Origin: a virus
Taxonomy: Duplodnaviria > Heunggongvirae > Uroviricota > Caudoviricetes
Length of the DNA: 24,401 nucleotides
IMG/VR virus record: IMGVR_UViG_2802429219_000006
Span: 1 to 24,401 of that record
Strand: one strand, 5' to 3'
In this document: positions 3,309-24,401 of the stretch, piece by piece
Position numbering within the stretch: the first letter of the stretch is position 1
How the letters are laid out: each line of letters opens with the position of its first letter
Notes under the pieces: model-generated
Databases searched by the model: none
Seen by the model: the letters and a program-made list of their open reading frames with translations, nothing else
Told to the model about the DNA's origin: nothing
Translations under genes and position numbers: made by a program

Positions 3309-3326
3309 AATCAGGCAGTGATATTT

Positions 3327-4138: not shown

Positions 4139-4141
4139 ACG

Positions 4142-4339
4142 TCAACCTTTCAAGTAAATTAAGGTGCCGGTAACCAGAGCGGTGCAAATGATCCACGCTA
4201 CTGGAGTCAGAATATGCCGAATACCCCGACATACTGCGATTATTCTCGCAGCCTTATCAGCCTCTTGTGGGGTTGTCTCAGCCTTAATCATCAAATCGTC
4301 TCCAAATTTATCTTTAGGTGCGCTAGAATTTGGTTGCAT
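4142..4339 (-). CDS. Small protein with a C-terminal transmembrane helix (unknown function)
   Basis: ORF 4142-4357 in the track. I prefer the internal ATG at 4339 (MQPNSSAPKDK...), which has a GGAGA Shine-Dalgarno 6 nt upstream; the first ATG has none. C-terminus ILTPVAWIICTALVTGTLIYL is hydrophobic. Confidence 0.4.
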   Translation of the reverse strand: MQPNSSAPKDKFGDDLMIKAETTPQEADKAARIIAVCRGIRHILTPVAWIICTALVTGTLIYLKG

Positions 4340-4382
4340 GAGTAATCTCCATGCCATTACAAATACTGTTCTGTTGATACAA

Positions 4383-4415
4383 AAAGCCCCGAACTGTTCC
4401 AGCAGCCGGGGCTTT
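4383..4415. terminator. GC-rich hairpin with T-tract, candidate intrinsic terminator (mainly for the minus strand)
   Basis: AAAGCCCCG-aactgttccagcagc-CGGGGCTTT. On the minus strand the stem is followed by TTTTTGT. It lies between the stop of the spike gene (4455) and the next gene. Confidence 0.45.
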
Positions 4416-4454
4416 CGCTTTATGAGATAGAATTTAAAGTGAAATGAACCGGAA

Positions 4455-5168
4455 TTAACCCGGATTTGGTTGCTTCGACGTGATCGTGCTGCCGCCGCTT
4501 TGAACGCCAGTCACATCGTGGCTGTGGCCGCTGGCGCTCACGCCGTTGATAACTGCATCTTTCTCGACCTTAAGAGGGCCAATCAGCGAAGCGGTTGTAT
4601 CCTTCATCTGGGCTTTGTCCTGGACGATCGGTCCGTTGAGGTGAATTTTCCCGTTCAGGAAAATATCTTCGGCCTCAAGGTAAACAGCTTTCGACTTTTG
4701 CCTGATTTCTTCCGGAGCCACCGTTACCGAGCTACTGCTGTCCTCTGTTTTGAGGATCGCGCCATCCGGACCGTACAAAACGATTTTTTGCGGATCTTCG
4801 TCGGACCAGTCCTTGTTTGCCAGTGGCACGAAAAACAGTGGAGTGAGCGACATCGAGTAAGAGAGCGTCGCCATACCGGTTCCCAATCCGGACACACCGC
4901 GCAGTGATACATCAGCGGCAATTGTTACTCCTCGATCGCCCGGCTGTATCGGGTAACGAATATACGGGAATGTGGCGACAGGGATTGTTATCTGCGGAAA
5001 ATTGATCCCCTCCGGCAGCATATCAAACTGAACTGTCACTATCTGCCCACTGACATCGACAACATGGCAGGGCAACTCGCGGCCTTTCATATCCATTCTT
5101 GAGCGAGTGTGCTCATCAATCAATGTTGACAGAAGTCGCGTCATTGAATGTTTTTGAGCATTAGACAT
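4455..5168 (-). CDS. Baseplate spike protein (P2 gpV-like)
   Basis: 237-codon ORF. The C-terminal ...GVSASGHSHDVTGVQSGGSTITS resembles the His-rich apex region I recall in P2 gpV (HTHKHPGDSGGTTG). Position is between the hub and wedge genes. Confidence 0.55.
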   Translation of the reverse strand: MSNAQKHSMTRLLSTLIDEHTRSRMDMKGRELPCHVVDVSGQIVTVQFDMLPEGINFPQITIPVATFPYIRYPIQPGDRGVTIAADVSLRGVSGLGTGMATLSYSMSLTPLFFVPLANKDWSDEDPQKIVLYGPDGAILKTEDSSSSVTVAPEEIRQKSKAVYLEAEDIFLNGKIHLNGPIVQDKAQMKDTTASLIGPLKVEKDAVINGVSASGHSHDVTGVQSGGSTITSKQPNPG

Positions 5169-5182
5169 TCCCGCACCTCCGA

Positions 5183-6456: not shown

Positions 6457-6466
6457 ATATTCCCTT

Positions 6467-7120: not shown

Positions 7121-7122
7121 AA

Positions 7123-9512: not shown

Positions 9513-9901
9513 GTAAAAAAAACGAGTTCACCCGCAACATCATCCAGCTCAACGATTTCACGCTCCAGCGCCATATCAAGAGGGATTGTGTCGTAACCTT
9601 TGCCCTCCACCGGATAAACAAGGTTTGCCAGGCGAATTATTTCGTTCACCAGCGTATTACGAACTCCCTTATCATCGTCCCAGATACCGGAATCACGCGA
9701 GATCCGCTCCAGCATCAGAAAAGCAACGCGCGGACCCGCAACGACGCCAAGACCTTCAGAAAAAATGGCAGAAAAGGTTTTACTCAGAATGAAGAAATGC
9801 TCTTTAAACACCTCTTTGCTGATCGGCGTGGCATGGATCCAGCCATTACCCTTTTCTGTCCGGACAGGAATAATCAGATTCAGATTTCGGGAGATTTTCA
9901 T
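9284..9901 (-). CDS. Tail assembly chaperone (G-like, 0-frame product)
   Basis: ORF 9284-9913 in the track. I prefer the ATG at 9901, which overlaps the tube gene stop (ATGA). Position between tube and tape measure. Confidence 0.5.
   Translation of the reverse strand: MKISRNLNLIIPVRTEKGNGWIHATPISKEVFKEHFFILSKTFSAIFSEGLGVVAGPRVAFLMLERISRDSGIWDDDKGVRNTLVNEIIRLANLVYPVEGKGYDTIPLDMALEREIVELDDVAGELVFFTCVSSINSPEQAKGTLDVVNGIWSTQYSSLNLTDWIASLPTLKSAASSGATVNTSLATSSTTQPEPDSETSVQIPV
9512..9523 (-). other. Candidate -1 programmed ribosomal frameshift site (U UUU UUU slippery run)
   Basis: The plus strand has AAAAAAAA at about 9515-9522. On the mRNA the 0-frame reads GUU UUU UUU ACA; a -1 slip continues into UAC AUG CGU..., the 97-codon frame. 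Confidence 0.45.
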
Positions 9902-10341
9902 ACCAGATCCCACATTTCAGAGTTGATGTAATACGTACCGGTAATGGTGATGGCCACACCCGGCTCGCCCCCGGCGAAGGTCATATCCTGCACATTGGTG
10001 ATCGCCGTGTTATAGATATCGAAGTCACCAAACACCGTGCTGTCGCTATACACTTTTGCGTCGCCGATCGTGGCGTTTTTTTCCCATTGCGCCTTGAATT
10101 GTTTTCCCAGCGCCTGGCTACGCAGCAGATGAACACGCGCCTGTAAAATCATGTATGGCTGCGGCGACTGCACGGCTCCCGTCATAGCGGGTAAAAACTC
10201 CGTGATATTGCCCTGAAAGGACAATTCGACGCCTTCTTTTGCCAGAAATGAGGCGGACACATTCAGTTCGGAATGAGAGGTGAATTTAACGCTGGCGCGA
10301 ACCCGGTTAAGGGTGCCAACGGGGATCATTGGATTAGGCAC
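9898..10341 (-). CDS. Tail tube protein (putative)
   Basis: 147-codon ORF immediately after the sheath gene and before the chaperone and tape measure genes; size typical of myovirus tube proteins. Confidence 0.55.
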   Translation of the reverse strand: MPNPMIPVGTLNRVRASVKFTSHSELNVSASFLAKEGVELSFQGNITEFLPAMTGAVQSPQPYMILQARVHLLRSQALGKQFKAQWEKNATIGDAKVYSDSTVFGDFDIYNTAITNVQDMTFAGGEPGVAITITGTYYINSEMWDLV

Positions 10342-10352
10342 GGTTCAGTCCC

Positions 10353-11690: not shown

Positions 11691-12634
11691 TATTTAACCT
11701 CATATTTACAAATAACTTTTTCAATCAACTGCCGGGATATTTCCCGGGCGGTGCTCTGGTAGTAATTCACGTCAAAATCGACAATCTTTTTCTTCGCCAG
11801 AGCGTTGATTTCAACCTGTCCCGACTTTGCGTCCTGAACCACCGGAATATTGGTTACACCAAACTTTTCCTCCTCCAGCGCCCTGTTCACCACCGAGTCG
11901 ACAAGATCCAGCGCCATTTTGTTGCTGAATCCGTAAAGCGTCAGGCGAACCGAATCCTGGACGAGCTGGAATCGCTCACCACCGAAAACAACGGGAGCCA
12001 CCTGCAACGGAATACTGTTGCGAACATCCACCGCGATATACGGAGGACGAAGGTTCTGCGGTACCAGGTAAGACGGATACACGGTCGCGGCATCTTTCAT
12101 TTGCAGCCAGATCGGGATGCTGTTGGAGATGATCTGCTCGTCGCTGATATCCTCCTCGCAGTCGATAATCTGAGAGCGCATGGTTGGTAAAATCGCCATA
12201 CCGCGATAATGAAAAATACCCGACTGCTGATAACGGCTCTCCATTCGTGAAAAAGCGAACTGGACGCCGCCGTACTCACCGAGATAGATCGCATCGGGAT
12301 TTTCCACATTAAAATCATCAACCTGCTGAACAGGCGTGAAAATAATGTTGTTCACATCCTTCGAGACAGACTCGTCCTGAATCGCAATAACCTGACGATG
12401 CAGGCTGCCTTTGATTTTCAGACGAGTTGGTGACTCAATATTCAGGCGACACAGTTCATCGCAACTGATGATTTCCGCATTAACCCAATAGACAAAGCCA
12501 TCCAGCGGCAGAACCTGCCGGACATAGAGCCTGAACGTGATTTCCTGGTCTGACGAGATGGTTTCAACTGCGGATTTAAGAACGGACGAGAGCTGCGAAC
12601 TGTGCTGTTCGGCTAATTCCTCAAGACTCGGCAT
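11690..12634 (-). CDS. Structural protein between head and tail modules (unknown function)
   Basis: 314-codon ORF with ATG start; its stop overlaps the sheath gene start (TAATG). Confidence 0.5.
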   Translation of the reverse strand: MPSLEELAEQHSSQLSSVLKSAVETISSDQEITFRLYVRQVLPLDGFVYWVNAEIISCDELCRLNIESPTRLKIKGSLHRQVIAIQDESVSKDVNNIIFTPVQQVDDFNVENPDAIYLGEYGGVQFAFSRMESRYQQSGIFHYRGMAILPTMRSQIIDCEEDISDEQIISNSIPIWLQMKDAATVYPSYLVPQNLRPPYIAVDVRNSIPLQVAPVVFGGERFQLVQDSVRLTLYGFSNKMALDLVDSVVNRALEEEKFGVTNIPVVQDAKSGQVEINALAKKKIVDFDVNYYQSTAREISRQLIEKVICKYEVK

Positions 12635-13061
12635 TATTATCTATCCACGCTATAAAGCTGCCCTTAAACAGGCCGCCGTCTATGAATGACGGACGCCGCT
12701 CTCCGGTATATTTGTCCTTAAGCCTGGAGTTAACGCCCAGTAGCGCGGCCTGAGTTGGCACAGGGTTTCCGTTAATCGTCATCCCGGCCATTTCCTCGGC
12801 TTCCAGAAAACGGTGAAAAATCCCGCGGATATCGCCCATAACCTGCACAGGTGGCAACGGCACTTTATTTTTGAGATGGCGAATGAGCTGGAACGCAACC
12901 ATCTCCCCTGCCTCCTGGATAATCTCGTCCTTATGCATTTCCCAGAAGTGCGTAAAAATTTCGTATCGTTCCTCGAGGTCACAGGCCACGTCGAACGTGG
13001 TTTTTCCCGGTTCGTCGCCGTAGTCATACGGCTGGTCGACAACACCAAAACAAAGTTTCAT
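12621..13061 (-). CDS. Head-tail joining / completion protein (putative)
   Basis: ORF 12621-13076 in the track. I prefer the ATG at 13061 (MKLCFGVVDQ...), which overlaps the upstream stop as ATGA and follows a GGGGG Shine-Dalgarno-like run. Confidence 0.45.
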   Translation of the reverse strand: MKLCFGVVDQPYDYGDEPGKTTFDVACDLEERYEIFTHFWEMHKDEIIQEAGEMVAFQLIRHLKNKVPLPPVQVMGDIRGIFHRFLEAEEMAGMTINGNPVPTQAALLGVNSRLKDKYTGERRPSFIDGGLFKGSFIAWIDNNAES

Positions 13062-13498
13062 GGCGAGTACCCCCATACCGTGCCCATCTGCATCAGCACC
13101 GCAACAACCTGTCGTCCATACGGATCCTGCAACATCTGCAAATCCAGCAAAGACAGATTACTCAGCGCGTCGCTGATGGTGATCGAGCCCGATGTCCCCT
13201 GGTCTGCTGCCGCGCTGACAAGCCCGGTAGCCAGTTTCCCAAGGTTGAGTTTTTTTCTCAGGTCGGCAAACCACGAGCCGGGGGCGAAATTCAGGAGAAA
13301 TGAGGCGGCAGCGTTATAAACCGTTCGCACATAGATGATGGGTAAACGCTCCAGCCCCTGATCGTGAGGGATTAGCTCCATCGCAGACTGAAAGCAACAT
13401 TCCAGCGTCGGATCATCGTCAGCAATAGCATGAACCGGTACTTTCATGTCGTCACGAACAAAGCGAATAAATCCCTCCAGTGACGGACGCAAGGTCAT
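13058..13498 (-). CDS. Head-tail joining / completion protein (putative)
   Basis: 146-codon ORF, translationally coupled to its neighbours. Confidence 0.45.
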   Translation of the reverse strand: MTLRPSLEGFIRFVRDDMKVPVHAIADDDPTLECCFQSAMELIPHDQGLERLPIIYVRTVYNAAASFLLNFAPGSWFADLRKKLNLGKLATGLVSAAADQGTSGSITISDALSNLSLLDLQMLQDPYGRQVVAVLMQMGTVWGYSP

Positions 13499-13968
13499 TA
13501 TTTTTTAACCTTAATATTTCGCTTTGTGCTGGGCGGATTTTCCTGTTCAGTGTTAATCGCTTCCCCGGTGATTTCCATTTCAATACCACCCGGTTGAGGT
13601 TTTTCGCCACTCTGAATCACTGCCTGATCCACTGCGTTATTCAGCGATACGGCGCTGGCTGCGAGAATTTCTTCTGACAGGGATTCCAGATTTTCCGTTT
13701 TCTGCTCCGCGCAATCCTCAATGCGACCGACGCTCACAGGTTTATCGATGGAATAGCAGATACCGGAAAAATTCTTGTCCACCTTGTCACAACGCTGGAA
13801 TCCGTAAGGCTCATGCTGTCGGATGATGTGGTCGATAATATCGGACTGATTTTCGATCATATGCTGACGTCCGGACGGAATTGTCACACCGAACGACTGC
13901 GCTTTTTCGGGGAGTTTATAGTTGAACGTGTGCGGCTGACGTGAGCAGTTAGCGATGTAGAGTTTCAT
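13498..13968 (-). CDS. Hypothetical structural protein downstream of the capsid gene
   Basis: The track ORF begins at a TTG at 13983, inside the terminator T-tract; I prefer the ATG at 13968 (MKLYIANCSRQ...). Confidence 0.45.
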   Translation of the reverse strand: MKLYIANCSRQPHTFNYKLPEKAQSFGVTIPSGRQHMIENQSDIIDHIIRQHEPYGFQRCDKVDKNFSGICYSIDKPVSVGRIEDCAEQKTENLESLSEEILAASAVSLNNAVDQAVIQSGEKPQPGGIEMEITGEAINTEQENPPSTKRNIKVKK

Positions 13969-13981
13969 AAATTTTTCCCAC

Positions 13982-14006
13982 AAAAAAGGGGAGCATTTAG
14001 CTCCCC
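13982..14006 (-). terminator. Intrinsic terminator or attenuator after the major capsid gene
   Basis: Minus-strand GGGGAGC-uaaau-GCUCCCC followed by UUUUUU, about 20 nt after the capsid stop at 14026. Confidence 0.55.
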
Positions 14007-14025
14007 GCGTTATCAGGTTGAACGT

Positions 14026-15054
14026 TTATGCGTATTTGGCAGACAACAGGGTGATCCCCTCCGGGCGGAAGTTCCAGCCCGGCGTCGCGCGCATGGTATA
14101 CAACGTGGTCAGGCCGCCATCCGGCATAGGGGACGGGATTTCCGTCGGCGCTGCCATGTCGCAGAACATCACATTGACGGCCTGCTGGTTCGGGATCAGC
14201 GTGGAGAAAATATTGGTGTTAATGGCGTGACGCGCTTCCGGAACCTCAATCGTCGGGTTCGTAACGATAATCAGGTCATTACCACCAGCGCCTTTACCGA
14301 TCAGCGTGTCATCCTGGCAGAAAATGATGTCATCGCCCGTCGCCTTATCAGCGACGTCTTTAACCACCGTTCCCACCGTTCCGCTACCGCCACCAGGGCG
14401 CTGGTAACTGGTCAGCTCAACAATTCCTGTCCACTCCAGCGCCTTCATGAATCGCTGTGGGCTCAGAATGACGGTCGTTAATGGCTGCCCCAACAGCAAC
14501 ATGCGGGTTTTCTGGTCAGCAATCAGGCCAAGCATAAATTTAGCCATCTCGCCGGAATCCCAGGTGGTATATGAATCATTCCCTTTGCTGTCGTTGCCCA
14601 GATTCAGCGTCACTGCATTCGGGGAGTTGGTGATCCCCTCGTTATTAGCTGCATTCACACCATACAGCAGCATATTACGCAACATTTGAGCGTGTCCCTG
14701 GCGGTTAGCCAGGCGCAGGCCTTCAATCAGAGAATATCCCCAACGATCTGCTGCATCAGTATCGAGATAGCTGTATTGCGAGCGGGAAGAAATTCGGTAA
14801 GTCATCATCCCGTCATAGCCGCCAGAGATACTGGAAGACGGTAACTGGCCTGGCAGAGACTGGCCGACCTGCGCCTGCGAGGTCATGCGCAGATATTTCT
14901 GATAGACCATCAAATCACTGGAACTGATTTTTACCGCTGGAGCACCGCCAGCCAGGACTTCAAACGCACCGGAAGCCATGCTCTGTTGCACGATCATTTC
15001 CGGCAGCACCATTGACGGCGACACAATAGTAGTCGCAGGAGTAAATGCGCTCAT
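14026..15054 (-). CDS. Major capsid protein (putative)
   Basis: 342-codon ORF at the end of the head module, followed by a terminator hairpin. Not similar to lambda gpE as far as I recall. Confidence 0.5.
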   Translation of the reverse strand: MSAFTPATTIVSPSMVLPEMIVQQSMASGAFEVLAGGAPAVKISSSDLMVYQKYLRMTSQAQVGQSLPGQLPSSSISGGYDGMMTYRISSRSQYSYLDTDAADRWGYSLIEGLRLANRQGHAQMLRNMLLYGVNAANNEGITNSPNAVTLNLGNDSKGNDSYTTWDSGEMAKFMLGLIADQKTRMLLLGQPLTTVILSPQRFMKALEWTGIVELTSYQRPGGGSGTVGTVVKDVADKATGDDIIFCQDDTLIGKGAGGNDLIIVTNPTIEVPEARHAINTNIFSTLIPNQQAVNVMFCDMAAPTEIPSPMPDGGLTTLYTMRATPGWNFRPEGITLLSAKYA

Positions 15055-15068
15055 TAATTAATATCCCC

Positions 15069-15686
15069 TTAAATTAAAAACAGGCCGCACGGTTTGCCGT
15101 TTTCCCAGACAACGTTACCGCCATCCTCTTTTTTCACCGTCAGGTTTCCGTCAACTGAAACCATCAGCAGCTTAATATCCACTTTCGGATTAGCTCCGGG
15201 TGATCCCGAATAAACATCAACCATGTTTTTCGTCAGATCCCACACAAAACCACTGGCAGCAACAGTGTTATTGCCATCAGCCAACGCAACAACTTCTGCA
15301 CTGACAGGGAGAGGAATGCGGGCACCTGAGCCAACGCGGTAATAGTGAATAAAGCCACCCGCGAGATATAACGGCACCGGATTATCCGGCGTGGTAATGC
15401 CATGAAATGCCTGATTAAAGACAGTAAAGGCGTTACAGGCGTCCTTCGTGGCTTGCTTAATTACCGCGCCGTTAACGCTGTCTTTCGCGGGAGCAATGCA
15501 CTCCATAACTCCAACGCCACCCCATACCGGTTCAGTGATTTTGCTGTCCAGTCGACCGGAGCAAAGTTGCAGACGAATTGCCGGATCATCCTGCGCATCC
15601 CCCTGCATCAGCCCACGGGATTCGACGTTAAAAAGGCCACCAAACGCCCCACGGTTTTTAAACGGATGAAAGTTAATATCAGCCAT
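15069..15686 (-). CDS. Head protein (decoration or minor capsid, unknown)
   Basis: 205-codon ORF between the scaffold and capsid genes. Confidence 0.45.
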   Translation of the reverse strand: MADINFHPFKNRGAFGGLFNVESRGLMQGDAQDDPAIRLQLCSGRLDSKITEPVWGGVGVMECIAPAKDSVNGAVIKQATKDACNAFTVFNQAFHGITTPDNPVPLYLAGGFIHYYRVGSGARIPLPVSAEVVALADGNNTVAASGFVWDLTKNMVDVYSGSPGANPKVDIKLLMVSVDGNLTVKKEDGGNVVWENGKPCGLFLI

Positions 15687-15963
15687 TGTTCAGGCTCCCT
15701 TGAGTGTTAATTTTTGCCAGACGACGCCCCGGAATTTTGAAGGCACTCAGCCAGACGTTCGGATCGCCCTGATATTCAGTAATGCGACGCCCGGCTTCGT
15801 CGTTGCGGATGCGTTTATGCAGTTGCCCCTGCGTACTCATCATTTCTTTTTCGATGGACTGACGGGCGGCACTGAAAATTGCGTCTTCAAGCACAGCCAG
15901 CGTTGCAGAATCCGCAATCGCGCGAATATTGACGTCCTTATGTGCCGGAGAGTGTTTCTGCAT
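15679..15963 (-). CDS. ORF in the -1 frame of the scaffold gene 3' end; probably the true C-terminal part of the scaffold/protease protein
   Basis: 94-codon ORF with no Shine-Dalgarno. Its frame stays open a further ~40 codons upstream of the ATG with protein-like sequence (...GKNAPAPFSGENALDYRKRALIA-MQKHSPAHK...). Confidence 0.35.
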   Translation of the reverse strand: MQKHSPAHKDVNIRAIADSATLAVLEDAIFSAARQSIEKEMMSTQGQLHKRIRNDEAGRRITEYQGDPNVWLSAFKIPGRRLAKINTQGSLNNG

Positions 15964-17000
15964 AGCGATAAGCGCACGCTTGCGGTAGTCCAGCGCATTT
16001 TCACCAGAAAACGGTGCTGGCGCGTTTTTACCGCAGGCACTGAATGCAGAGTCGGCTTTTCCTGCGCTTCTGCCAAGGCAGAATCATTGCGTTCTTTTTC
16101 TGCCTCCTCGTCGGCCTTACGCTGTTCTTCTGCTTCGGAATCAGCCTTTGCTTTCTCCTCAGCGTCTTTAGCTGCCGCCTCGTCAGCTTTGGCTTTTTCT
16201 TCCGCCTCCTTTGCCGCAGCTTCATCAGCTTTACGCTGTTCCTCTGCGGCTTCATCGGCTTTGGCCTTTTCTTCGGCCTCTTTTTTCGCCTGCTCTTCAG
16301 CATCCGCCCGCGCTTTGTCCCGCTGTTCCAGTGAGTCCATGCGCGTGACTACTCCATCGATTTTCTGATTAATGCCGCTCAGGGCATCGTTCACCACCCC
16401 CTGTAACAGGGCCTGGAGTTCTTCTTTTTCCATCTCAATTTCACCTGTATTTGTCACTTCAACCCCTGCGGGGATCCGGTCTTTATCCCACACGCCCAGC
16501 GAGCCGTGGTCTTTCGTCACCAGGGCGATGTGATCAACAAGGAAAGGAACGCCTTCGATTAAAAAATTGGTGTCACCTTCCTGTACTTCCACATTTCCTG
16601 ATGTGCTGTTGAACACCACCGACGGGCTTGTCGAAACATCCCCCTCGGTGATTTCTTCAACAATGCTCTGGAGGTAAACGCGGCACACCGCCCATACCTC
16701 ATCACCCCGGATATACGGCAGCATGACGCTACCGACGATCCGCGATTTAAAGTCCTCCTCCGTCAGAACTGCGTCGTCAGGATGGTTTGCGATAACCGGA
16801 AGGCCATTGCATCGCCTTAAAAACTCCTCGTTCAGATAGAGCTTTGGATCACGCCAGACGTGCTCTTTCAGCCCGGCGCGATAGGCAAGCCCGGTTCCGG
16901 TTATTCGCAAATTCACCAGCCACATGTTGGAGAATTTCACCGGAGACGGTACGGTTCCGTCCCTGATGCGTTCTGCCACTTCAAGCTCGGTTAAACTCAC
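15840..17000 (-). CDS. Prohead scaffold / protease-like protein with Ala/Glu/Lys coiled-coil repeats; apparent frame break near the 3' end
   Basis: 386-codon ORF with GTG start at 17000 and a GGAGAAGGG Shine-Dalgarno. Contains the repeat AEEKAKADEAA / AEEQRKADEAA. The last ~55 codons (…RQHRFLVKMRWTTASVRLSLCRNTLRHIR…) look like out-of-frame translation. Confidence 0.55.
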   Translation of the reverse strand: MSLTELEVAERIRDGTVPSPVKFSNMWLVNLRITGTGLAYRAGLKEHVWRDPKLYLNEEFLRRCNGLPVIANHPDDAVLTEEDFKSRIVGSVMLPYIRGDEVWAVCRVYLQSIVEEITEGDVSTSPSVVFNSTSGNVEVQEGDTNFLIEGVPFLVDHIALVTKDHGSLGVWDKDRIPAGVEVTNTGEIEMEKEELQALLQGVVNDALSGINQKIDGVVTRMDSLEQRDKARADAEEQAKKEAEEKAKADEAAEEQRKADEAAAKEAEEKAKADEAAAKDAEEKAKADSEAEEQRKADEEAEKERNDSALAEAQEKPTLHSVPAVKTRQHRFLVKMRWTTASVRLSLCRNTLRHIRTSIFARLRILQRWLCLKTQFSVPPVSPSKKK

Positions 17001-17814
17001 GTTTGCCCTTCTCCGTTAAAAATTCGTCGGGTAGTTTCTGAGGGGCGTAGATCGGCAGTGCATCGCAACTGCAATAAACCTCCTCCCCGGCAGCAGTGAT
17101 TTCGTCATAAAAACCATATACGGGCTTAATCAGCCCCTGCTCCAGCGCCCACGAATCGCGGAGGAGATAAATTTTCTCGTCGCGCTCTTTGTGGTCCTGT
17201 CGGTATTTGTAGCCCGGACGCCGCCAGTTAGAATGCCAGCGCAGAGCAATCGCTCCACTCTGAACAGCCAGCAGATACTTAACGTTGCTTGCCAGCTTAT
17301 GCCCCTGGTCAATTGCCACCCGACGACTGATAAAATCCATATCCTTCACGGATTTCTGAAACCCGGACTTCACTTCCCGGCGATCAATTTCGCTCACCCC
17401 GTCAGGCGGAATGGACGTAACCCACCCCTGAAAACGCTGTATGGTTTTCTCGATGGCCTGTTCGCGGTTGAGTTTTATCAGGTTGGCACTGGCGAAAATT
17501 CGCCTGTCGAGTTCCTTGCGAAACTCAGGTTTCAGTTTTTCAACAGTGATTTTTTTTGGGCCGTCAGGAGGCTGATCCCGTAATGCCCCGCCGTCGATGA
17601 CAAGACGGCTGTAGATAGCGGTGAGGTGTTTTCTGGCTACGGTATCATCAGGGGTTTCTCGCTGAGCGGCTACACGGAGTTTCCGGCACCATTCGAGCAA
17701 TGATTTTTCGCTATCCCACCCGCGATTTACGTAGTAGTTAACGGCATCCGTCAGAACCTCATACAGCGTCCTGATCCGTTTCTTCTTCCTCACCGCCCGG
17801 CTGGAAATTGCCAT
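16981..17814 (-). CDS. Head morphogenesis / minor head protein (putative)
   Basis: ORF 16981-17952 in the track. I prefer the ATG at 17814 (MAISSRAVRKKKR...), which has an AGGAGA Shine-Dalgarno and overlaps the acidic portal C-terminus by about 56 nt. Confidence 0.45.
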   Translation of the reverse strand: MAISSRAVRKKKRIRTLYEVLTDAVNYYVNRGWDSEKSLLEWCRKLRVAAQRETPDDTVARKHLTAIYSRLVIDGGALRDQPPDGPKKITVEKLKPEFRKELDRRIFASANLIKLNREQAIEKTIQRFQGWVTSIPPDGVSEIDRREVKSGFQKSVKDMDFISRRVAIDQGHKLASNVKYLLAVQSGAIALRWHSNWRRPGYKYRQDHKERDEKIYLLRDSWALEQGLIKPVYGFYDEITAAGEEVYCSCDALPIYAPQKLPDEFLTEKGKREFNRA

Positions 17815-19195
17815 CAGGCGTCTCCTGCTTCGGTGGTTCATAATTCGCCAGCGCGTCCACATCAATGATGAGTGGAGCTTCGCCATAGGTTTGCGTGGCA
17901 TTAACAAGGCTTGCCAGCCATTCAGCGAGGGCGGCGCGGTTTTCAGGATCAACCTGTGGCGACACGGCAGAGAAAAGTGCTATCGCCTGTTGAATCACTT
18001 TACTGTCGCTTTCCCGGCGTTTGTCCGGCGACTCCTCAACCAGCTCCTGCCACGTCGCGGTAAATTCACGTCGCCACTGGTAAAACGTGGTTTTATAGTC
18101 GTCTGTTATGATGTCCGGGTAATCATTTTTCAGCGACTGATAAAATTCCTCGTTCCAGGCGATGTACTGCACCAGGCGTTCGAAATAATCCATCACAGGT
18201 TCAATCTGCTGGCGTACACCATCGATATACTGGCTGATAGCTTTCGAGTCCTCCTTACCTTCACCGAATCCGTTACTGAACGCTTCTTCCTTGATAATAA
18301 TGGCCGGAACGTCACTCCCGGCGGCAATATCAGCAATGATGTTGTCGCGGGATGTATTCAGCGCCCCGTCGATGTTTTGCAGGTTCAGTGAACTTACGTC
18401 TTCGTCTTTTCCAATACTCAACACGCCTTTATTTTTGGCGGCTTTCACGTTTTCCCTTTTACGCCCCGTGGCAGCAGCCATGATCCCGTCAATTTTCGAA
18501 CCGTTCTGCACAACTTTAGCCACCAGTACGCCTGCCTTCTGGCTGACGAGATCATTCGCCTCCATCGTATTGATATAGGATTTCAGGGAATAAAGAACTC
18601 GCTGAAACACGCTTCGCCCGGTGAATCCGAACGATGAACTCTGAAACTCCAGATAAATCGGTGTGCCGTTGAAGATTTTCAGTGTGCGTGACGGATGCCA
18701 GTCTTTTCCGCCAATCTTCAGTTTTTTATTGGCTTCCTGGAAAAACGGGCTGTTGGGGTTCTGGTCAGTCACCATCGAACCGGAAGCGTTCAACGGGTCC
18801 CACGCGTTGATATACACGTCATCTTCTGTCAGTCCGAACGTCGGAAGCGGTTCACGACATGAAACACTGTCGGTGCCCACGCCGATCGCTGCGGCACCGT
18901 AGCAACGAGACAGAAAAAACAGATTTTTAATCTTCTCGTTAACCTTCATACGTTCCCATACCTCCTGGAAACGCCGCACAACCCGCTCGTCAGGGTCTGT
19001 CTCCACGTTGTACTGGCGCGGCTTACACATCGCCATAAGTATGGGTTTTTCGACAAGTTTCCCGCCCAGCGGGTGGTACTGCCACAGCAGTTTACACAGT
19101 TCATAGCCAATGTCGGTTCCCGGCTGAATTTCTTCAGCCTCAAGAATGCGCATCAGCGAAGAACTGAGATTTACAGAAATCTCGATCTCAGCCAT
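17759..19195 (-). CDS. Portal protein
   Basis: 478-codon ORF immediately downstream of the large terminase gene, with an acidic C-terminal tail (GGEEEETDQDAV). Position and size are typical. Confidence 0.7.
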   Translation of the reverse strand: MAEIEISVNLSSSLMRILEAEEIQPGTDIGYELCKLLWQYHPLGGKLVEKPILMAMCKPRQYNVETDPDERVVRRFQEVWERMKVNEKIKNLFFLSRCYGAAAIGVGTDSVSCREPLPTFGLTEDDVYINAWDPLNASGSMVTDQNPNSPFFQEANKKLKIGGKDWHPSRTLKIFNGTPIYLEFQSSSFGFTGRSVFQRVLYSLKSYINTMEANDLVSQKAGVLVAKVVQNGSKIDGIMAAATGRKRENVKAAKNKGVLSIGKDEDVSSLNLQNIDGALNTSRDNIIADIAAGSDVPAIIIKEEAFSNGFGEGKEDSKAISQYIDGVRQQIEPVMDYFERLVQYIAWNEEFYQSLKNDYPDIITDDYKTTFYQWRREFTATWQELVEESPDKRRESDSKVIQQAIALFSAVSPQVDPENRAALAEWLASLVNATQTYGEAPLIIDVDALANYEPPKQETPDGNFQPGGEEEETDQDAV

Positions 19196-19214
19196 CAGAA
19201 AAAAATCCAGATTT

Positions 19215-20543
19215 TTACAATTCCGCGTAATTACCGTGCGCGATGATCAATCCATAGGTGTAACAATCGAAAAGGTCATCAGCACGTTTATGCGCATCTT
19301 TGTCTGCCAGGTGGAACCCGGCGATTTGTTTTATGAGGTGGTTTGCGGTGGTGCGTTTGAATGAAACGGTCTTGTCGTAAGCCTCCCGGACGATTTTGCA
19401 CATCCCCTGATAGTGGTAGCTGGATGCCATCACCGCCCGTTCGTCTTTGCCCTTGCTGGTTAGTGCCGATTTAATCGGCGTCATATCCCAGCCTTCGGTT
19501 TCCGCCTTCTGGTTGAGAATTGCCCCCATCGCGGCGTCTTCCATAAAAATTCCCTGGCTGCCCAGACGCGGACGGCATAATTTCGCGAGGCGCTCGAGGT
19601 TGTCATAAACGCCGGGGATATATTCAGGAAGCAATGACGCTTTAATTTGCGTCACATCCCAGTCAATAATCGTCAGTTTTGGCTCGTCCGAATACGTTGA
19701 CTCATAAGAGAAATACACCACGCCAGTACCATCATTTTCGGTCCCGCCTTTCAGCGCCGTATCCATCACTGCGAAAATCATGTCGCAGTACAGCGGCATC
19801 TCAATTGGTTGGCCGTCCACCAGCAGCTTATCGACATCGAGTAACGCGTCTTTGGACCAGTCCACGAACTCTGCAAGATATTCCTGCTGCCAGACGCGCG
19901 GATCGGATTTCTTCTCCGTTTCCTCCAGTTCTTCTTTCGGAATATACGGATTCGATGAAGTTGGCGCATGATGCATGACAAATCCCAGGGATTCATCGTG
20001 GCATATCGCGTAGAAAAAATTGCTCTCGTCGATACCGTTTGGTGTGGAAAATACCCACGCACAGCCGCGGTAATCGACAAGCGTCGGGCGTATCGCTCGG
20101 GGCCAGATTTCCTCGAGCATTTCCGGCGATTTAGTGAATGCGGCCTCATCAATCAGCACAGCGTGATATTTACGCCCACGCCCGGCCAGTTTGTTATTGT
20201 CCGTTACCCAAAAGTCGATGCGCCCCCCATTACGGAGAATGATGCGCTTTTCATTTTTTGACTGACTGAGGATCAGCGGTTGCAGAACGGCGCTAATTTC
20301 ATCCCAGATTTCCTGGTACTGGCGGTATTGCGCGGTAAAAATCCCCACCCTACCCGCGATAAGTTGCCCGGTGGTAGGAACGGCAAATTTCCGCGTCGCG
20401 AAACTGGTAGCGATGTTTACCAGCATCACCGTTTTACCCCAGCGACGACCACAGCATACCGCGTGGAAGCGTTCCTCTATTGCCGCCGTCCATGCAGCTA
20501 TTTGCCCCTCATGAGGTTTTGGGAGGTAGATTTCAATCGACAT
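19215..20543 (-). CDS. Terminase large subunit
   Basis: 442-codon ORF with an N-terminal Walker A-like motif (CCGRRWGKT) and a ...VLIDEAAF... Walker B-like segment. Overlaps the small subunit gene end. Confidence 0.85.
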   Translation of the reverse strand: MSIEIYLPKPHEGQIAAWTAAIEERFHAVCCGRRWGKTVMLVNIATSFATRKFAVPTTGQLIAGRVGIFTAQYRQYQEIWDEISAVLQPLILSQSKNEKRIILRNGGRIDFWVTDNNKLAGRGRKYHAVLIDEAAFTKSPEMLEEIWPRAIRPTLVDYRGCAWVFSTPNGIDESNFFYAICHDESLGFVMHHAPTSSNPYIPKEELEETEKKSDPRVWQQEYLAEFVDWSKDALLDVDKLLVDGQPIEMPLYCDMIFAVMDTALKGGTENDGTGVVYFSYESTYSDEPKLTIIDWDVTQIKASLLPEYIPGVYDNLERLAKLCRPRLGSQGIFMEDAAMGAILNQKAETEGWDMTPIKSALTSKGKDERAVMASSYHYQGMCKIVREAYDKTVSFKRTTANHLIKQIAGFHLADKDAHKRADDLFDCYTYGLIIAHGNYAEL

Positions 20544-21672
20544 TATCCACTCCCGGCATCGGCAGAGAGTTGTGGATAATTATTTCGTTATTCTCACCAC
20601 CCACGCCTTTTTTGAGGTTTTCAATCTCAGTGCGCAGCTTTTCGTTGCGAAGCCTCAGTCCTTCAAGCTCCAGATCATTGCGACTGTCAGTTGCACCACC
20701 AGCAGAACTTCCTTTCGTCGCCATTATCAGCTTGATAAGTTCGCGCCGGGCGGCAGCCTTATCCTCCAGCAGGATCTCAACACCAAATTTCCCGAGTTTT
20801 GCCCCTGCATATAATTGTCGCGCATCCCCATCAAGCAGAGTGGTATCAGCCATATAAAGCTGTCCCGTTCCCTCACCGCAGCACTTCGGGCAGTCCGGAT
20901 TGGGTATGGCGTTATCAACAAAGCCAAGGCCTCCATATTCCGGCTCGGGTTTGCCATCTCTGGAGGCCTGTGCCGCTGCCTTATCGAATTCTGCAATATC
21001 ACGCCACTGGTAGAGGTGATTCTCGCCCCAGCAATAACGGCAGTTAACACGGCGAAATTGTGCCAACTGATTGGGGTCGGCCTGGACGATGGCCATCAAC
21101 TGACTCACCAGCAAATCCAGGTCTGCGGTATAGCGTTTCTGGTACTGATTGCGGAAGTAGCTGATAGCGCGAAAAACCTTATCATTTCTTATCAGGCGAC
21201 TGGCATTTGCGTACAACCCCTGACCTAAATCTGAATATCCTGCGTCACGGTAAGCCGTGGCCAGTTTTTTCCCTTGAGCAACCAGCATGGCGAATTTTGC
21301 CTGCTGGTCAGAAATGCCGAATTCATCAGGGGTGAAAGGGATATCAGCATCACTAGGCAACAAGCTGAAGCTGGTATTTTTAGAACCGTTTTTGGATGTC
21401 CGGGCATCGTTACATCCCGAACTTTTTTGCTCTTTTCCTGACTGCGAATTCGCGATTTTTTTGGGGTCTTTTTTTCGCGATTTTTTTCCCGAATTCGCGA
21501 TTTTTCCTCCACTTCCTGAAAGGAGAGCTTTAGCAGCCTTTATCGTGATATGGTTTTTCGCAGTTCCCCATGAATGGCCTTCTCTGTCACTCCACTCTTT
21601 AGGCTTTATTCCCGTCTGTCGCCATTCGTTTGCAAACCGGGATAATTCCTCACCCCAGTTCGTCCTGGCCAT
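20533..21672 (-). CDS. Terminase small subunit with extended N-terminal region
   Basis: 379-codon ORF with an AGGAGG Shine-Dalgarno. Central block ...AYRDAGYSDLGQGLYANASRLIRNDKVFRAI... matches the AGYS...A.RL..N..V..AI pattern I recall for small terminase subunits. It is directly upstream of the large subunit gene. Confidence 0.7.
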   Translation of the reverse strand: MARTNWGEELSRFANEWRQTGIKPKEWSDREGHSWGTAKNHITIKAAKALLSGSGGKIANSGKKSRKKDPKKIANSQSGKEQKSSGCNDARTSKNGSKNTSFSLLPSDADIPFTPDEFGISDQQAKFAMLVAQGKKLATAYRDAGYSDLGQGLYANASRLIRNDKVFRAISYFRNQYQKRYTADLDLLVSQLMAIVQADPNQLAQFRRVNCRYCWGENHLYQWRDIAEFDKAAAQASRDGKPEPEYGGLGFVDNAIPNPDCPKCCGEGTGQLYMADTTLLDGDARQLYAGAKLGKFGVEILLEDKAAARRELIKLIMATKGSSAGGATDSRNDLELEGLRLRNEKLRTEIENLKKGVGGENNEIIIHNSLPMPGVDNVD

Positions 21673-21733
21673 ACGGATTTACCTCCTGGGCTAAAAAGTT
21701 TTTTCATCAACAGAAATCTGTCAAAAGGAAATA

Positions 21734-21789
21734 AAAGCTCGCTATCGGCCAGTGCGCTGGGTGCGCGGCGGGTGCTGATAACGAGCTTT
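21734..21789 (-). terminator. Large imperfect hairpin with U-rich tail upstream of the small terminase gene (terminator-like)
   Basis: AAAGCTCG (21734-21741) pairs with CGAGCTTT (21782-21789), with further inner pairing TATC/GATA. On the minus strand it is followed by TTTTATTTCCTTTT. Confidence 0.35.
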
Positions 21790-21829
21790 GGCATTATCGC
21801 AGCCCCTCACAGAAGAGCTGCTGTAATGC

Positions 21830-22009
21830 CTAACCATCCTGATGTTGTTGTGATTTCGCATTAACTAAGTCAATGAAGTCCAGGCACATTTCAAGACGAT
21901 GACCATGATCATCGACAAAGTTATAACGCCGAAATATATCAATAATTTCATTGGGACTTTTCCCCGCAATATGAGGATATTGTTTTGATTCGTAATTATG
22001 TTTCATCAT
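21830..22009 (-). CDS. Small hypothetical protein (59 aa)
   Basis: ORF 21830-22042 in the track. The internal ATG-ATG at 22009 has a GGAGA Shine-Dalgarno 4-5 nt upstream. Product MMKHNYESKQYPHIAGKSPNEIIDIFRRYNFVDDHGHRLEMCLDFIDLVNAK... looks protein-like. Confidence 0.4.
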   Translation of the reverse strand: MMKHNYESKQYPHIAGKSPNEIIDIFRRYNFVDDHGHRLEMCLDFIDLVNAKSQQHQDG

Positions 22010-22197
22010 CAAATCTCCAGTCAGTTGGGTATGATTCAGCAACTCTCACACTGGAAATAGCCTTTCACAATGGAGGTATCTATCAATACTCTGGTGTTCC
22101 ATCCAGGATCTATCAGGGTCTTATGAATGCCAGTTCAAAAGGCCAGTATTTTCACCAATTCATTAAAAATGTGTATCCATACCGTAAGGTAGGCTAA
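21985..22197 (+). CDS. KTSC-domain small protein
   Basis: 70-codon ORF with a TTG start. ...VSSSNLQSVGYDSATLTLEIAFHNGGIYQYSGVPSRIYQGLMNASSKGQYFHQFIKNVYPY matches the KTSC-domain consensus as I remember it. Confidence 0.6.
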   Translation: MIRNYVSSSNLQSVGYDSATLTLEIAFHNGGIYQYSGVPSRIYQGLMNASSKGQYFHQFIKNVYPYRKVG

Positions 22198-22323
22198 CCT
22201 TCAGTGGGGGAGAAGAGCATCCCCCACATTCATATATCAACCAGATTAGATAACAGAATTTCATGCTTCCTAGACAATGGCGCCCCTTCATTTTTCAGCG
22301 AAATATTCTGCTCTTACGGGCGA

Positions 22324-22506
22324 TCAGTTCTGCAGACACTGCCGGACACTATCAACAATTTCGCAGACCTGAGAAGCTGTATCGAAAAGCTGGCGCGCCT
22401 TATCTAGGCTGACGCACCCCACCAATAAAAAAGGCACCAGTATCGCTACCAGTGCCCATTTTGCCGCCGCTCGCGGCATTCTGTGTGTCCAGTGTTTTCG
22501 GCTCAT
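22324..22506 (-). CDS. Small putative lipoprotein
   Basis: 60-codon ORF. N-terminus has basic residues, a hydrophobic stretch and an LLVGC lipobox; the mature part would be about 29 aa with two further Cys. Its ATG lies 1 nt after the stop of the upstream 37-codon ORF. Confidence 0.45.
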   Translation of the reverse strand: MSRKHWTHRMPRAAAKWALVAILVPFLLVGCVSLDKARQLFDTASQVCEIVDSVRQCLQN

Positions 22507-22507
22507 A

Positions 22508-22621
22508 TCACCACCAACGCACAGCCCAAATCAGAACAGCGACCGCCACAAGGCGAATTGCAAAGGCCGCAGCCCTTGTCAAATCAAGGCTCGCGGGAGT
22601 TTCCACTTCAATACCTTTCAT
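22508..22621 (-). CDS. Small transmembrane peptide (37 aa), not in the ORF track
   Basis: My own translation of the minus strand: ATG at 22621, MKGIEVETPASLDLTRAAAFAIRLVAVAVLIWAVRWW, stop TGA then T then the ATG of the lipoprotein ORF. GAGG Shine-Dalgarno-like element upstream. Confidence 0.35.
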   Translation of the reverse strand: MKGIEVETPASLDLTRAAAFAIRLVAVAVLIWAVRWW

Positions 22622-22712
22622 AATGGACAACCTCAAAAAGAATCTTTTATACTTTCCCACGAGGATTTTCTCCGTACTCACTACTCACAATTTCCTCTTT
22701 GACGTGAAAACT

Positions 22713-22747
22713 AAAAACCCCGGACTGTTCCAGCAGCCGGGGTTTTT
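22713..22747. terminator. Bidirectional intrinsic terminator
   Basis: AAAAACCCCGG-actgttccagcag-CCGGGGTTTTT: an 11-bp stem flanked by an A-tract and a T-tract, so it gives a hairpin plus U-run on both strands. Located just downstream of the endolysin gene. Confidence 0.6.
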
Positions 22748-22840
22748 GCTATCTGATGCTGTACCCCTTACTTTCGCTCATAGTAACCCCAGAAAAGAGC
22801 CTCCGTGAGTTGAGGGTGTTCAGCACTTCAGCGTCAGTTT

Positions 22841-23386
22841 TTAAACTGCTACGCGCTCTTTCATCCAGCCGTAGACAAACGACTCGTTGGCCTCGCGTTT
22901 TTCTGCCAGCTCCAGATAGCGGTCGCCCTGCGTGCAATTCAGCGCCTTCAGCATCACCAGTTCGCCGTCTTTGCCGCGTTTTTGCAGATAAGTCCGTAGT
23001 GCATTAATCGTGCGGGGGCCGATACGCCCGTCTGCGTCCATATCCGGGAACAATTTGCCTTGCAGGTTGAAAACGTTCAGCCAGCGTTGGAGCATTTTCG
23101 ATGCTACGGACGGCCCCATATTCACACCGGTATCACACAACTCTGCAGCAATATCAGAGGATAATGCGGCCACCTGATCAAAGCGTGGTCCGAACCAGTA
23201 ATCCGCCTCAAGGATTTCCAGCGCCTGTTCGCGTGTCAGGTCACGCATATCGCCCTGATATCCGTGAGCGCGGGCGACTTTTTCCGTAATACCCCATTTT
23301 GTCGGTCCGCCTTTATCATCCGGGTGATTGACGTAACCGCCCTCTTTTCCCAGAACTTCGTCAAAAATTTCATCTTTCGACTTCAT
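22841..23386 (-). CDS. Endolysin, GH108-type lysozyme with peptidoglycan-binding C-terminal domain
   Basis: ORF 22841-23407 in the track. I prefer the ATG at 23386 (MKSKDEIFDEVLGKEGGYVNHPDDKGGPTKWGIT...), the typical GH108 N-terminal motif; the downstream ...ADGRIGPRTINAL... resembles a PG-binding domain. The start is 1 nt after the upstream membrane protein's stop. Confidence 0.8.
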   Translation of the reverse strand: MKSKDEIFDEVLGKEGGYVNHPDDKGGPTKWGITEKVARAHGYQGDMRDLTREQALEILEADYWFGPRFDQVAALSSDIAAELCDTGVNMGPSVASKMLQRWLNVFNLQGKLFPDMDADGRIGPRTINALRTYLQKRGKDGELVMLKALNCTQGDRYLELAEKREANESFVYGWMKERVAV

Positions 23387-23387
23387 A

Positions 23388-23681
23388 TCAGCGCCTTCGT
23401 AATACAAAGATTTTTGAAACGTTCCCGCGTGCGCGAATCACCAACACGCAGAACAGCAGATTAAGCCCCACCGCCAGCCAGTTCGCCGCTAACGGGCGAC
23501 CGCACAGATAGCTGAGGGGCGCAAAGGCATAAAGCAGCATCAGCAGCCAGGCCAGCCATGACATCAGCGGTTTATGTCTGGAATCACGGCGACGATAAAA
23601 AAAGAGCGTCAGCACGATAACCGTGCATAACGCCACATTCAGCAATCCGGGAAGGTTACTTAACATTATCGCCTCCTCCAC
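23388..23681 (-). CDS. Membrane protein with about 3 predicted TM helices (holin or antiholin candidate)
   Basis: 97-codon ORF directly upstream of the endolysin. Hydrophobic segments LPGLLNVALCTVIVLTLFFY, LMSWLAWLLMLLYAFAPLSYL and LAANWLAVGLNLLFCVLVI; basic C-terminus. Confidence 0.5.
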   Translation of the reverse strand: MEEAIMLSNLPGLLNVALCTVIVLTLFFYRRRDSRHKPLMSWLAWLLMLLYAFAPLSYLCGRPLAANWLAVGLNLLFCVLVIRARGNVSKIFVLRRR

Positions 23682-24048
23682 TCTTCAGGCGGGAGAGCAG
23701 ACAGGACATCAGTGATATAACGTCCTGCCTGTGCACAAAGGACAGCACTTTTACCGACAATACAGACACCAGCACTGCACACAATGCGTCAACAGGTGCA
23801 CCATCAAACTCTGTATGCTTTACCAGCCAGGATGCCAGAACCTCTGCGCCCAGCACGCCGATAATGAACGACACCAGAAAATGCGCTGCCACACGCCAGG
23901 CTGAAAGCGCCTGCGGAATTGTTGCCACAAATAACGCCCCGGCGAACGCACCAAACACAATCCCGAAATCCGTTCCGGTAAACAGCCCGTACACCGTCGC
24001 CCCGCCGAGCGCCGCAGCCGTACCGGAACCGGATAAGGGTTCAGACAT
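23656..24048 (-). CDS. Membrane protein (holin candidate)
   Basis: 130-codon ORF with an AGGAGA Shine-Dalgarno and several hydrophobic segments (e.g. FGIVFGAFAGALFVATIPQAL, FLVSFIIGVLGAEVLASWLV). First gene of the lysis cluster. Confidence 0.5.
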   Translation of the reverse strand: MSEPLSGSGTAAALGGATVYGLFTGTDFGIVFGAFAGALFVATIPQALSAWRVAAHFLVSFIIGVLGAEVLASWLVKHTEFDGAPVDALCAVLVSVLSVKVLSFVHRQDVISLMSCLLSRLKSGGGDNVK

Positions 24049-24065
24049 ACTTTTTTCTCCTATAA

Positions 24066-24095
24066 ATAAAAAAGGGCCACCAGCGGCCCGTAAAA
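24066..24095 (-). terminator. Short GC hairpin flanked by T-tracts on the minus strand, immediately upstream of the holin-candidate RBS
   Basis: Plus strand AAAAAAGGGCC-accagc-GGCCCGTAAAAAAA. On the minus strand the 5-bp GC stem is followed by TTTTTTATTTATA and then AGGAGA and the ATG. Confidence 0.4.
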
Positions 24096-24141
24096 AAACA
24101 ACACCCCGTCAAAGGCACCCGCAGATGCCTTTTGTGTGATG

Positions 24142-24294
24142 TTATTCAGATTTATGCAGTAAAGGCCGGAGCACAACCAGCGCCATCGCCACCAGCACAC
24201 CATCTGCCAGCACCGACATCAGCCGTCCGGTGAAATCCACCACCACTACCAGAAACAGCAGGATGGCAGCCAGTACAAGGCGCGCACTTTTCAC
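24142..24294 (-). CDS. Possible small hydrophobic peptide (50 aa, GTG start)
   Basis: My own translation: VKSARLVLAAILLFLVVVVDFTGRLMSVLADGVLVAMALVVLRPLLHKSE. Its GTG overlaps the stop of the partial upstream gene. Not in the ORF track. It may instead be untranslated leader. Confidence 0.25.
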   Translation of the reverse strand: MKSARLVLAAILLFLVVVVDFTGRLMSVLADGVLVAMALVVLRPLLHKSE

Positions 24295-24401
24295 AGGTAC
24301 TGCTCCAGCGGTAGCTGAAGCGCCTGAGCAATTTTCTTGAGCTGTGCTTCTTCATCCGGACCAATGCCATCCTGGTCAGCGATATCCAGACACAGGCACA
24401 G
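24291..24401 (-). CDS. 3' end of an unidentified gene entering from the right edge
   Basis: Minus-strand frame open from the window edge: ...LCLCLDIADQDGIGPDEEAQLKKIAQALQLPLEQYL then stop. The start is outside the window and I do not recognise the family. Confidence 0.35.
   Translation of the reverse strand: MCLCLDIADQDGIGPDEEAQLKKIAQALQLPLEQYL

Follow-up and report, generated by a model that had tools for sequence, protein, structure and literature searches.

In phage P22 and in epsilon34, the gap between the arc and ant cistrons is filled by the sar RNA, which is transcribed from a promoter located inside ant. The P22 promoter has its -10 hexamer, TATACT, just upstream of the sar start and a few bases before the complement of the ant ATG, and the epsilon34 record labels the corresponding stretch Psar. 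The RNA is 68–69 nt long, and the P22 hairpin has no U-run on the sense strand and folds better on the sar strand (-22 kcal/mol) than on the sense strand (-16 kcal/mol). A literature search found no paper on sar-like RNAs outside the control of ant.

Type I toxin-antitoxin modules, including hok/sok, tisB/istR and shoB/ohsC, form a second group of described systems with which this locus may be compared. Boundary sequences of lambdoid phages were reportedly treated by Clark and colleagues in 2001, in connection with HK620. Two are annotated in phage CUS-3, as bsq1 and bsq2, and the concept is cited in a passage of PMC3029335. Morons of lambdoid phages are credited, in a passage of PMC2629481, to Juhala et al. 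(2000) and Hendrix et al. (2000).

The element described here is a hairpin located downstream of the endolysin gene in a window of 24,401 nt (the whole stretch of DNA analysed, positions 1 to 24,401 of IMG/VR record IMGVR_UViG_2802429219_000006). It is best read as a bidirectional Rho-independent terminator that is kin to sar and whose plus-strand role would be to end a sar-like antisense RNA lying over the ribosome-binding site of a small ORF, a reading to which a probability of roughly 0.55 is assigned. The window corresponds to a phiP27/Rac-SA53-like prophage of E. coli type with its late genes all on the minus strand. In the direction of transcription the order is two holins, a GH108 endolysin, 93 nt, the hairpin, a small ORF and a lipoprotein gene; beyond these are a plus-strand KTSC gene, the small and large terminase subunits, the portal, and the head and tail genes (Table 1). 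The hairpin adjoins the endolysin gene on its downstream side, as had been proposed from the sequence alone. Among the minus-strand baseplate genes are two plus-strand ORFs of 93 and 182 aa (2482–3308; the 182-aa product belongs to PHROG 31333) that look like an oppositely oriented insert.

Table 1. Coordinates of the two hairpin copies, their neighbouring genes and the predicted antisense transcripts.
Feature	Coordinates	Strand	Description
Small membrane-protein ORF (copy 1)	4142..4339	-	65 aa; C-terminal hydrophobic segment; no family matches
-10-like hexamer (copy 1)	4324..4329	+	TAGAAT; 7 nt before complement of the small ORF's ATG; weak -35
Predicted antisense RNA (copy 1)	4336..4420	+	~80–85 nt; would cover ATG 4339–4337 and Shine-Dalgarno 4350–4347 of the small ORF
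Hairpin copy 1	4381..4415	same orientation as copy 2	AAAAAG, core 4387–4411, CTTT
Baseplate protein (bppV in Rac-SA53)	4455..5168	-	gene upstream of copy 1
Lipoprotein gene	22324..22506	-	60 aa; lipobox LLVGC; PHROG 7528; start overlaps the small ORF's stop
Small membrane-protein ORF (copy 2)	22508..22660	-	C-terminal hydrophobic segment; PHROG 4493/1115
Promoter-like site for predicted antisense RNA	22624..22653	+	-35 TGGACA 22624–22629, 18-nt spacer, -10 TATACT 22648–22653
Predicted sar-like cis-antisense RNA (copy 2)	22660..22750	+	~88–91 nt; predicted ends
Hairpin copy 2	22713..22747	terminator-like on both strands	A5, 25-nt core 22718–22742, T5
GH108-type endolysin	22841..23386	-	upstream of copy 2 on the transcribed strand; stop codon 93 nt before the hairpin

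The small ORFs following the hairpin family fall into six types, all of which (6/6) encode a C-terminal hydrophobic segment. Pfam, NCBIfam, PHROGs and PADLOC returned no function for the small ORFs, the lipoprotein or the 93-aa gene that precedes the hairpin in some contexts. The copy 2 ORF has two start options, GTG 22660 (50 aa; Shine-Dalgarno GGAG at 22673–22670) and ATG 22621 (37 aa), and RefSeq annotates its homologue from the internal ATG (37-aa form). The 13-codon extension is basic (GKYKRFFLRLSI), both starts are preceded by a Shine-Dalgarno sequence, and the GAGG ahead of the internal ATG is invariant across the ORF family; production of two isoforms is possible.

The copy 2 hairpin has the sequence AAAAA CCCCGGACTGTTCCAGCAGCCGGGG TTTTT. 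Its plus-strand RNA forms six G-C pairs, a bulged A and four further pairs (one of them G-U) closed by a 4-nt loop, and its minus-strand RNA forms six G-C pairs, a bulged U and three further pairs with a 6-nt loop; on either strand the flanking A5 and T5 can add up to five A-U pairs. Folded in 61-nt windows, the two strands give -23.8 (plus) and -24.7 (minus) kcal/mol with z-scores of -4.34 and -5.00 respectively, and an equally good fold was obtained in at most 1 of 200 shuffles. A T-run lies immediately 3′ of the stem on both strands (TTTTTGCTATCT on the plus and TTTTTAGTTTTC on the minus strand). The sequence-only reading had described this as a bidirectional intrinsic terminator with an 11-bp stem, and the anatomy is borne out, with a G+C-rich stem-loop and a U-run on each strand. 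The arm is indeed 11 nt long, but a bulge interrupts it and leaves 9–10 actual pairs, including six consecutive G-C pairs; because of this bulge, a simple terminator scan recovers only fragments of the hairpin. The G+C-rich stem, the A-run and T-run, and the resulting capacity to end transcripts with a U-run in both directions are shared with bidirectional terminators located between convergent genes. Unlike in those, the flanking protein genes are co-directional, and the sole convergent transcript would be the predicted short antisense RNA.

The 25-nt core CCCCGRACTGTTCCAGCAGCCGGGG is found exactly twice in the window and in the same orientation, at 22718–22742 and, with one mismatch (24/25 bases identical), at 4387–4411; it was absent from 100 shuffles with up to three mismatches allowed. 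The previously noted kinship with a hairpin at 4383–4415 is therefore confirmed. Copy 1 (AAAGCCCCGAACTGTTCCAGCAGCCGGGGCTTTCGCTTTAT) is situated between the baseplate gene and the copy 1 small ORF, and its plus-strand U-run (CTTTCGCTTT) is weaker than that of copy 2. As direct repeats, the two cores surround 18.3 kb containing the packaging, head and most of the tail genes, and both copies are present in other contigs of the phage lineage (e.g. L016 and L029, from one contig).

Variants of the hairpin were folded one by one instead of from a single MAFFT alignment, which set bulged and unbulged hairpins in different registers. The E. coli-type hairpins fold roughly symmetrically between strands, and some variants fold better on the sense strand. 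The antisense-side T-run is kept in every E. coli-type context, and the sense-side T-run is lost in some, e.g. in the LT-II prophage. Variation within the hairpin preserves pairing (CTG/CAG replaced by TTG/CAA or GCG/CGC) and the loops are variable. At one site with identical flanks, the inner hairpin is inverted between the window (4386–4412; GCCCCGAACTGTTCCAGCAGCCGGGGC) and Rac-SA53 (L140, 3113–3139; GCCCCGACTGCTGCAACAGTTCGGGGC), and a second pair of close relatives (L283 and L328) differs in the same way; these look like recurrent stem-mediated loop inversions. The symmetric fold and the flipped loops show either that the hairpin in the sense direction matters too, or that structure alone matters; the flips in particular speak for a structural role that is symmetric, which counts against the antisense-RNA reading.

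The hairpin is a recurrent joint between otherwise unrelated sequences. An exact-pattern scan of viral contigs returned 54 hairpin loci, among which left flanks of at least seven unrelated kinds reassort with at least six kinds of right flank (combinations A1, A2, A3, A4, B1, C5, F5, D6 and E4), with the break falling within a few bases of the stem; a wider pattern returned 62 non-redundant contexts. The hairpin unit is present in 151 of 5,426 complete E. coli genomes (~3%), ETEC and STEC strains included, and most matches to these genomes break where the T-run ends (window position 22746). Two of the strains, E. coli 602354 (NZ_CP025847) and CH4793, are 100% identical to the window over 22600–22760. 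In ETEC prophages encoding LT-II, the space between the endolysin gene and the hairpin is occupied by a 69-aa ORF and the genes for enterotoxin A and B. A conserved hairpin with non-conserved flanks marks this as a site where related prophages exchange or acquire neighbouring genes, the LT-II genes included. The paper describing the LT-II locus does not mention the hairpin. In E. coli Ceylon31 (L002) the LT-II insert occupies 2964–4590, equivalent to window 22747–22841, and the sense-side T-run is replaced by GGGACG. Three further loci (L009, L039 and L046) differ in a C-run of 6 to 8 C in the right flank (the endolysin 3′ untranslated region), ~20 nt from the hairpin, and are otherwise identical in sequence.

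A short conserved sequence exactly at the join of unrelated modules is also what defines the likeness to boundary sequences, and the 482-nt 'bsq2 boundary sequence' of the CUS-3 record contains a homologous sar-type hairpin. The conserved part here differs from bsq2 in being 35–45 nt, compared with 482 nt, and in carrying structure-preserving changes. That the element is kept primarily for homologous module swaps between co-resident prophages, with any transcriptional role secondary, is improbable: the reassortment of left and right flanks and the breaks at the end of the T-run fit such a function, but 25–35 nt is very short for efficient homologous exchange, and pairing-preserving changes with variable loops point to selection on RNA or DNA structure and not on sequence identity. 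A boundary function is in any case compatible with the preferred reading, a terminator ending an antisense RNA, and is not an alternative to it.

Related lysis-site loci were also gathered independently of the hairpin, through the lipoprotein gene. Among the 80 loci obtained, 43 carry no hairpin and no small ORF, the lipoprotein gene coming immediately after an M15 endolysin gene, and 27 have a hairpin of the same family together with a small ORF. The baseplate site is similar in that, in distant relatives, the stop of the bppV-type gene abuts the next baseplate gene (a homologue of 3791–4138) without hairpin or small ORF, and the E. coli group has the hairpin and one or more small ORFs there. 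In two loci (L119 and L122) the lysis site has a variant hairpin followed by an ORF of the copy 1 type, and phiP27 lacks the hairpin. Because many relatives are without both at the lysis and baseplate sites alike, the hairpin and small ORF constitute one inserted cassette. Each small ORF has a stop that overlaps or abuts the next late gene and no terminator behind it, so the hairpin does not serve its cassette as a 3′ terminator. It forms the upstream end of the insert and is followed by a short leader with a ribosome-binding site and then the small membrane-protein gene. This position does not agree with the proposal that the hairpin separates the lysis cassette from a moron/packaging region: it lies between the endolysin gene on one side and the small membrane-protein ORF and lipoprotein gene on the other, and in the 43 loci noted above the lipoprotein gene directly follows the endolysin gene, with no hairpin. 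The sequence-only reading had missed membership of an inserted cassette, as it had the recurrent mosaic joint and the kinship with the sar terminator.

As extra genes between late genes that are adjacent in related phages (endolysin and lipoprotein at one site, the baseplate pair at the other), and with LT-II genes beside the hairpin in ETEC prophages, the cassettes resemble morons. In a classical moron the inserted gene has a promoter of its own ahead of it and a terminator behind it. In the cassettes the hairpin precedes the small ORF, the 30–60 nt leader has no room for a sense promoter (a leader scan called none on the sense strand), and the ORF runs into the next late gene.

Two further explanations of the conserved stem can be weighed against these contexts. 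The hairpin could be an mRNA processing or stability element, either shielding the endolysin message at its 3′ end or being cut by RNase III, so that upstream and downstream expression are uncoupled. A stable stem near the ends of several upstream genes would suit such a role (in the M15-endolysin and 93-aa-gene contexts the stop codon precedes it by 9–10 nt), but the stem is short for RNase III and the T-runs on both sides are needed by terminators and not by a stabiliser; this explanation is very improbable. Recognition by a recombinase or transposase, as for an integron attC site or an IS200/IS605 end, is extremely improbable. No recombinase or transposase gene lies beside the cassette in the contexts examined, the hairpin is at one end only, and neither target duplication nor a conserved cleavage motif was seen; the observations that such a mobile element would explain are a bulged hairpin travelling with a small ORF to at least two late-operon sites and a loop that inverts between relatives.

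No Rfam family matched anywhere in the window at the gathering threshold. The best sub-threshold match to both copies, on the plus strand, was sar (RF00262), with 23.3 bits (E 0.012) for copy 2 and 17.7 bits for copy 1 relative to a gathering score of 43, and sub-threshold matches to RF00262 also occur on other cassette types. Other terminator-bearing families score similarly below threshold; the matches to the rimP leader, the His leader, ohsC and others were rejected as noise that reflects only a generic CCCCG...CGGGG stem and U-run. When counted by eye, 25–26 of 33 aligned positions are common to copy 1 and the CUS-3/P22-type sar terminators; the 13-nt ACTGTTCCAGCAG of the inner hairpin is identical in one sar-type variant, and the 3′ tail of copy 1 (CTTTCGCTTTAT) is similar to the P22 sar tail (CTTCAACTTTAC). 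The layout is also common to P22 and the window. In both, the hairpin separates the stop of one gene from the ribosome-binding site and start codon of the gene that follows; the two hairpins are nearly the same in inner stem and loop and have similar 3′ tails, a -10 (TATACT) is present on the opposite strand just within the downstream gene at the same spacing, and the predicted RNA has two stem-loops with an anti-Shine-Dalgarno sequence in the first. Judged by these sequences, the terminator appears homologous to that of sar.

Similar hairpins occur in unrelated phyla, and part of the sar resemblance could therefore be convergent. A degenerate-pattern scan of genome contigs was uninformative on the E. 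coli-type element, returning mostly look-alikes in unrelated phyla (Hymenobacter, Lachnospiraceae, a haloarchaeal coding sequence) and a few P22-type sites in Xenorhabdus, Pectobacterium and Entomohabitans. Near-identical stems and loops (CCCCGRCTG-CNGNAA-CAGTCRGGG) are present as apparent terminators in Hymenobacter, Lachnospiraceae, Oscillospiraceae, Janthinobacterium and others (L141–L170), and these look-alikes are probably convergent.

There are several differences from P22 sar. The candidate target is a small membrane-protein ORF and not the antirepressor Ant, and there are no arc, mnt or ant genes at either hairpin copy; the 'ant' of Rac-SA53, considered as a possible antirepressor link near copy 1, is another gene, on the plus strand, and does not occur in the window. 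The RNA predicted in the window is ~88 nt, compared with 68–69 nt for sar. Finally, with its bulge and its A- and T-runs, the E. coli-type hairpin is built as a terminator in the sense direction too, unlike that of P22. Two statements about the 22713–22747 hairpin are well supported: it belongs to the sar-terminator family as an intrinsic terminator built for both directions, and it is a joint at which recombination has recurred.

The putative antisense promoter of copy 2 is ~60 nt upstream of the hairpin. Its two hexamers match at 10 of 12 positions and make it the joint best site in the scanned region (4500–24401), a region in which promoter-like matches are no commoner than in shuffles. The last base of TATACT is 7 nt short of 22660, the position complementary to the GTG; in silico this is the arrangement of a sar-type antisense promoter, whose -10 is just within the gene it targets and whose start site coincides with the start codon. 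Across 26 unique sequences of the A/B/E/G ORF family, the proteins of which are only 40–60% identical, the block TTTATACTT does not vary; conservation of TATACT in the A/B family could stem partly from a conserved peptide, K-Y-K. The copy 1 hexamer was not called by the promoter scan, and the homologous cassette in L119/L122 has an extended -10, TGTTAGGCT, at its position.

An antisense-strand TAnnnT is present 7–16 nt within the downstream ORF in five of the six unrelated gene families that follow the hairpin family, compared with a background of 11% among 1,123 phage gene starts. The ant genes have six hexamer variants that keep T1, A2 and T6, with TGn; the A/B/E/G family has TATACT, the F and L283 types TAAAAT (F also with TGn), the C type TAGAAT and the C-type ORF of L119/L122 the extended form given above. 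TAGGCT is another of the variants seen, and several include an extended -10 TGn. The exception is type D, in which TATACT is 33 nt into the ORF and not at its start. The reading frame in which the hexamer falls is not the same in ant as in the small A/B ORFs.

The RNA predicted for copy 2 has a minimum free energy of -30.4 (z -4.3) and two stem-loops. The 5′ one (GAGGA...UCCUC) carries an anti-Shine-Dalgarno CUCC (22670–22673) in the region of its loop, and the second is the terminator hairpin. The corresponding copy 1 RNA has a minimum free energy of -25.8 (z -3.3). In the proposed mechanism, a sigma-70 promoter in the first codons of the small ORF would start a plus-strand RNA at ~22660. This RNA would be fully complementary to the Shine-Dalgarno sequence and GTG of the ORF, would have its 3′ end at the hairpin U-run and, at ~85–90 nt, would block translation of the membrane protein in a sar-like manner; if the internal ATG 22621 were the true start, the RNA would not cover the ribosome-binding site. 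On the minus strand, the hairpin and U-run would stop polymerase that arrives from the endolysin gene without having been modified by the late antiterminator, and antiterminated late transcription would pass through into the small ORF, the lipoprotein gene and the packaging genes. That lytic read-through needs antitermination was already part of the sequence-only reading and is kept here as what we infer, the Q region being outside the window.

The plainest alternative is a bidirectional terminator that insulates the endolysin gene and stops stray transcription both ways, with no antisense RNA and with -10-like hexamers that are coincidental or driven by coding. Such an element would need nothing beyond a good hairpin with T-runs on both strands, and it agrees with the symmetric fold, with loop flips tolerated between relatives and with promoter-like matches that do not exceed those of shuffles. 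It leaves unexplained the TAnnnT at the same place in five of six unrelated families, the constant place of the hairpin upstream of a small ORF that lacks a terminator, and the sar match of both the inner sequence and the 3′ tail, and is considered rather unlikely. Termination of a sar-like antisense RNA that controls the downstream small membrane protein is given roughly even odds from these sequence patterns.

The small ORFs and their predicted antisense RNAs may also be compared with type I toxin-antitoxin modules, in that a hydrophobic protein of 37–65 aa would have its ribosome-binding site covered by a predicted short cis-encoded RNA. They differ in being located inside a phage late operon and not standing alone, and the small ORFs have no match among known defence and toxin-antitoxin models, ohsC reaching just 18 bits (E 5.5). 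A broader proposal, in which the hairpin, the antisense promoter and a tail-anchored membrane-protein gene form a portable sar-type cassette that is like a type I toxin-antitoxin module, inserted at no fewer than two late-operon sites (after the endolysin gene and after a baseplate gene) and acting as a docking point for LT-II-like virulence morons, is tentative and somewhat doubtful. Should the antisense RNA exist, antirepressor control in P22-like phages would not be the only use of the P22 sar mechanism: a reusable regulatory module would act on several unrelated small membrane proteins in E. coli prophage late operons, and a conserved boundary sequence with a known molecular function would be present at the exact spot of the LT-II genes. 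Should it not exist, the element is an ordinary, well-conserved bidirectional terminator.

The likelier plus-strand client of the hairpin, to judge from the sequence, is the short antisense RNA from the 22624–22653 promoter-like site. The idea that the hairpin stops plus-strand moron transcripts is not supported, as transcripts of the KTSC gene (21985–22197) would first meet a hairpin at 22204–22227 and two more at 22432–22478, making this gene an unlikely client. The first of these is an inverted repeat (GTGGGGGA...TCCCCCAC) directly after the KTSC stop codon and is probably that gene's own terminator. At 22432–22457 a strong terminator-like hairpin on the minus strand (GGGCACTGGTAGCGATACTGGTGCCT then TTTTTATT) is located within the part of the lipoprotein gene coding for the signal peptide, and a further hairpin is present on the plus strand at 22462–22478. 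The lysis and baseplate regions of the window are 91–96% identical to those of PP818812.1, named Actinobacillus phage vB_Apl-pPE4, which is unexpected for a Pasteurellaceae host.
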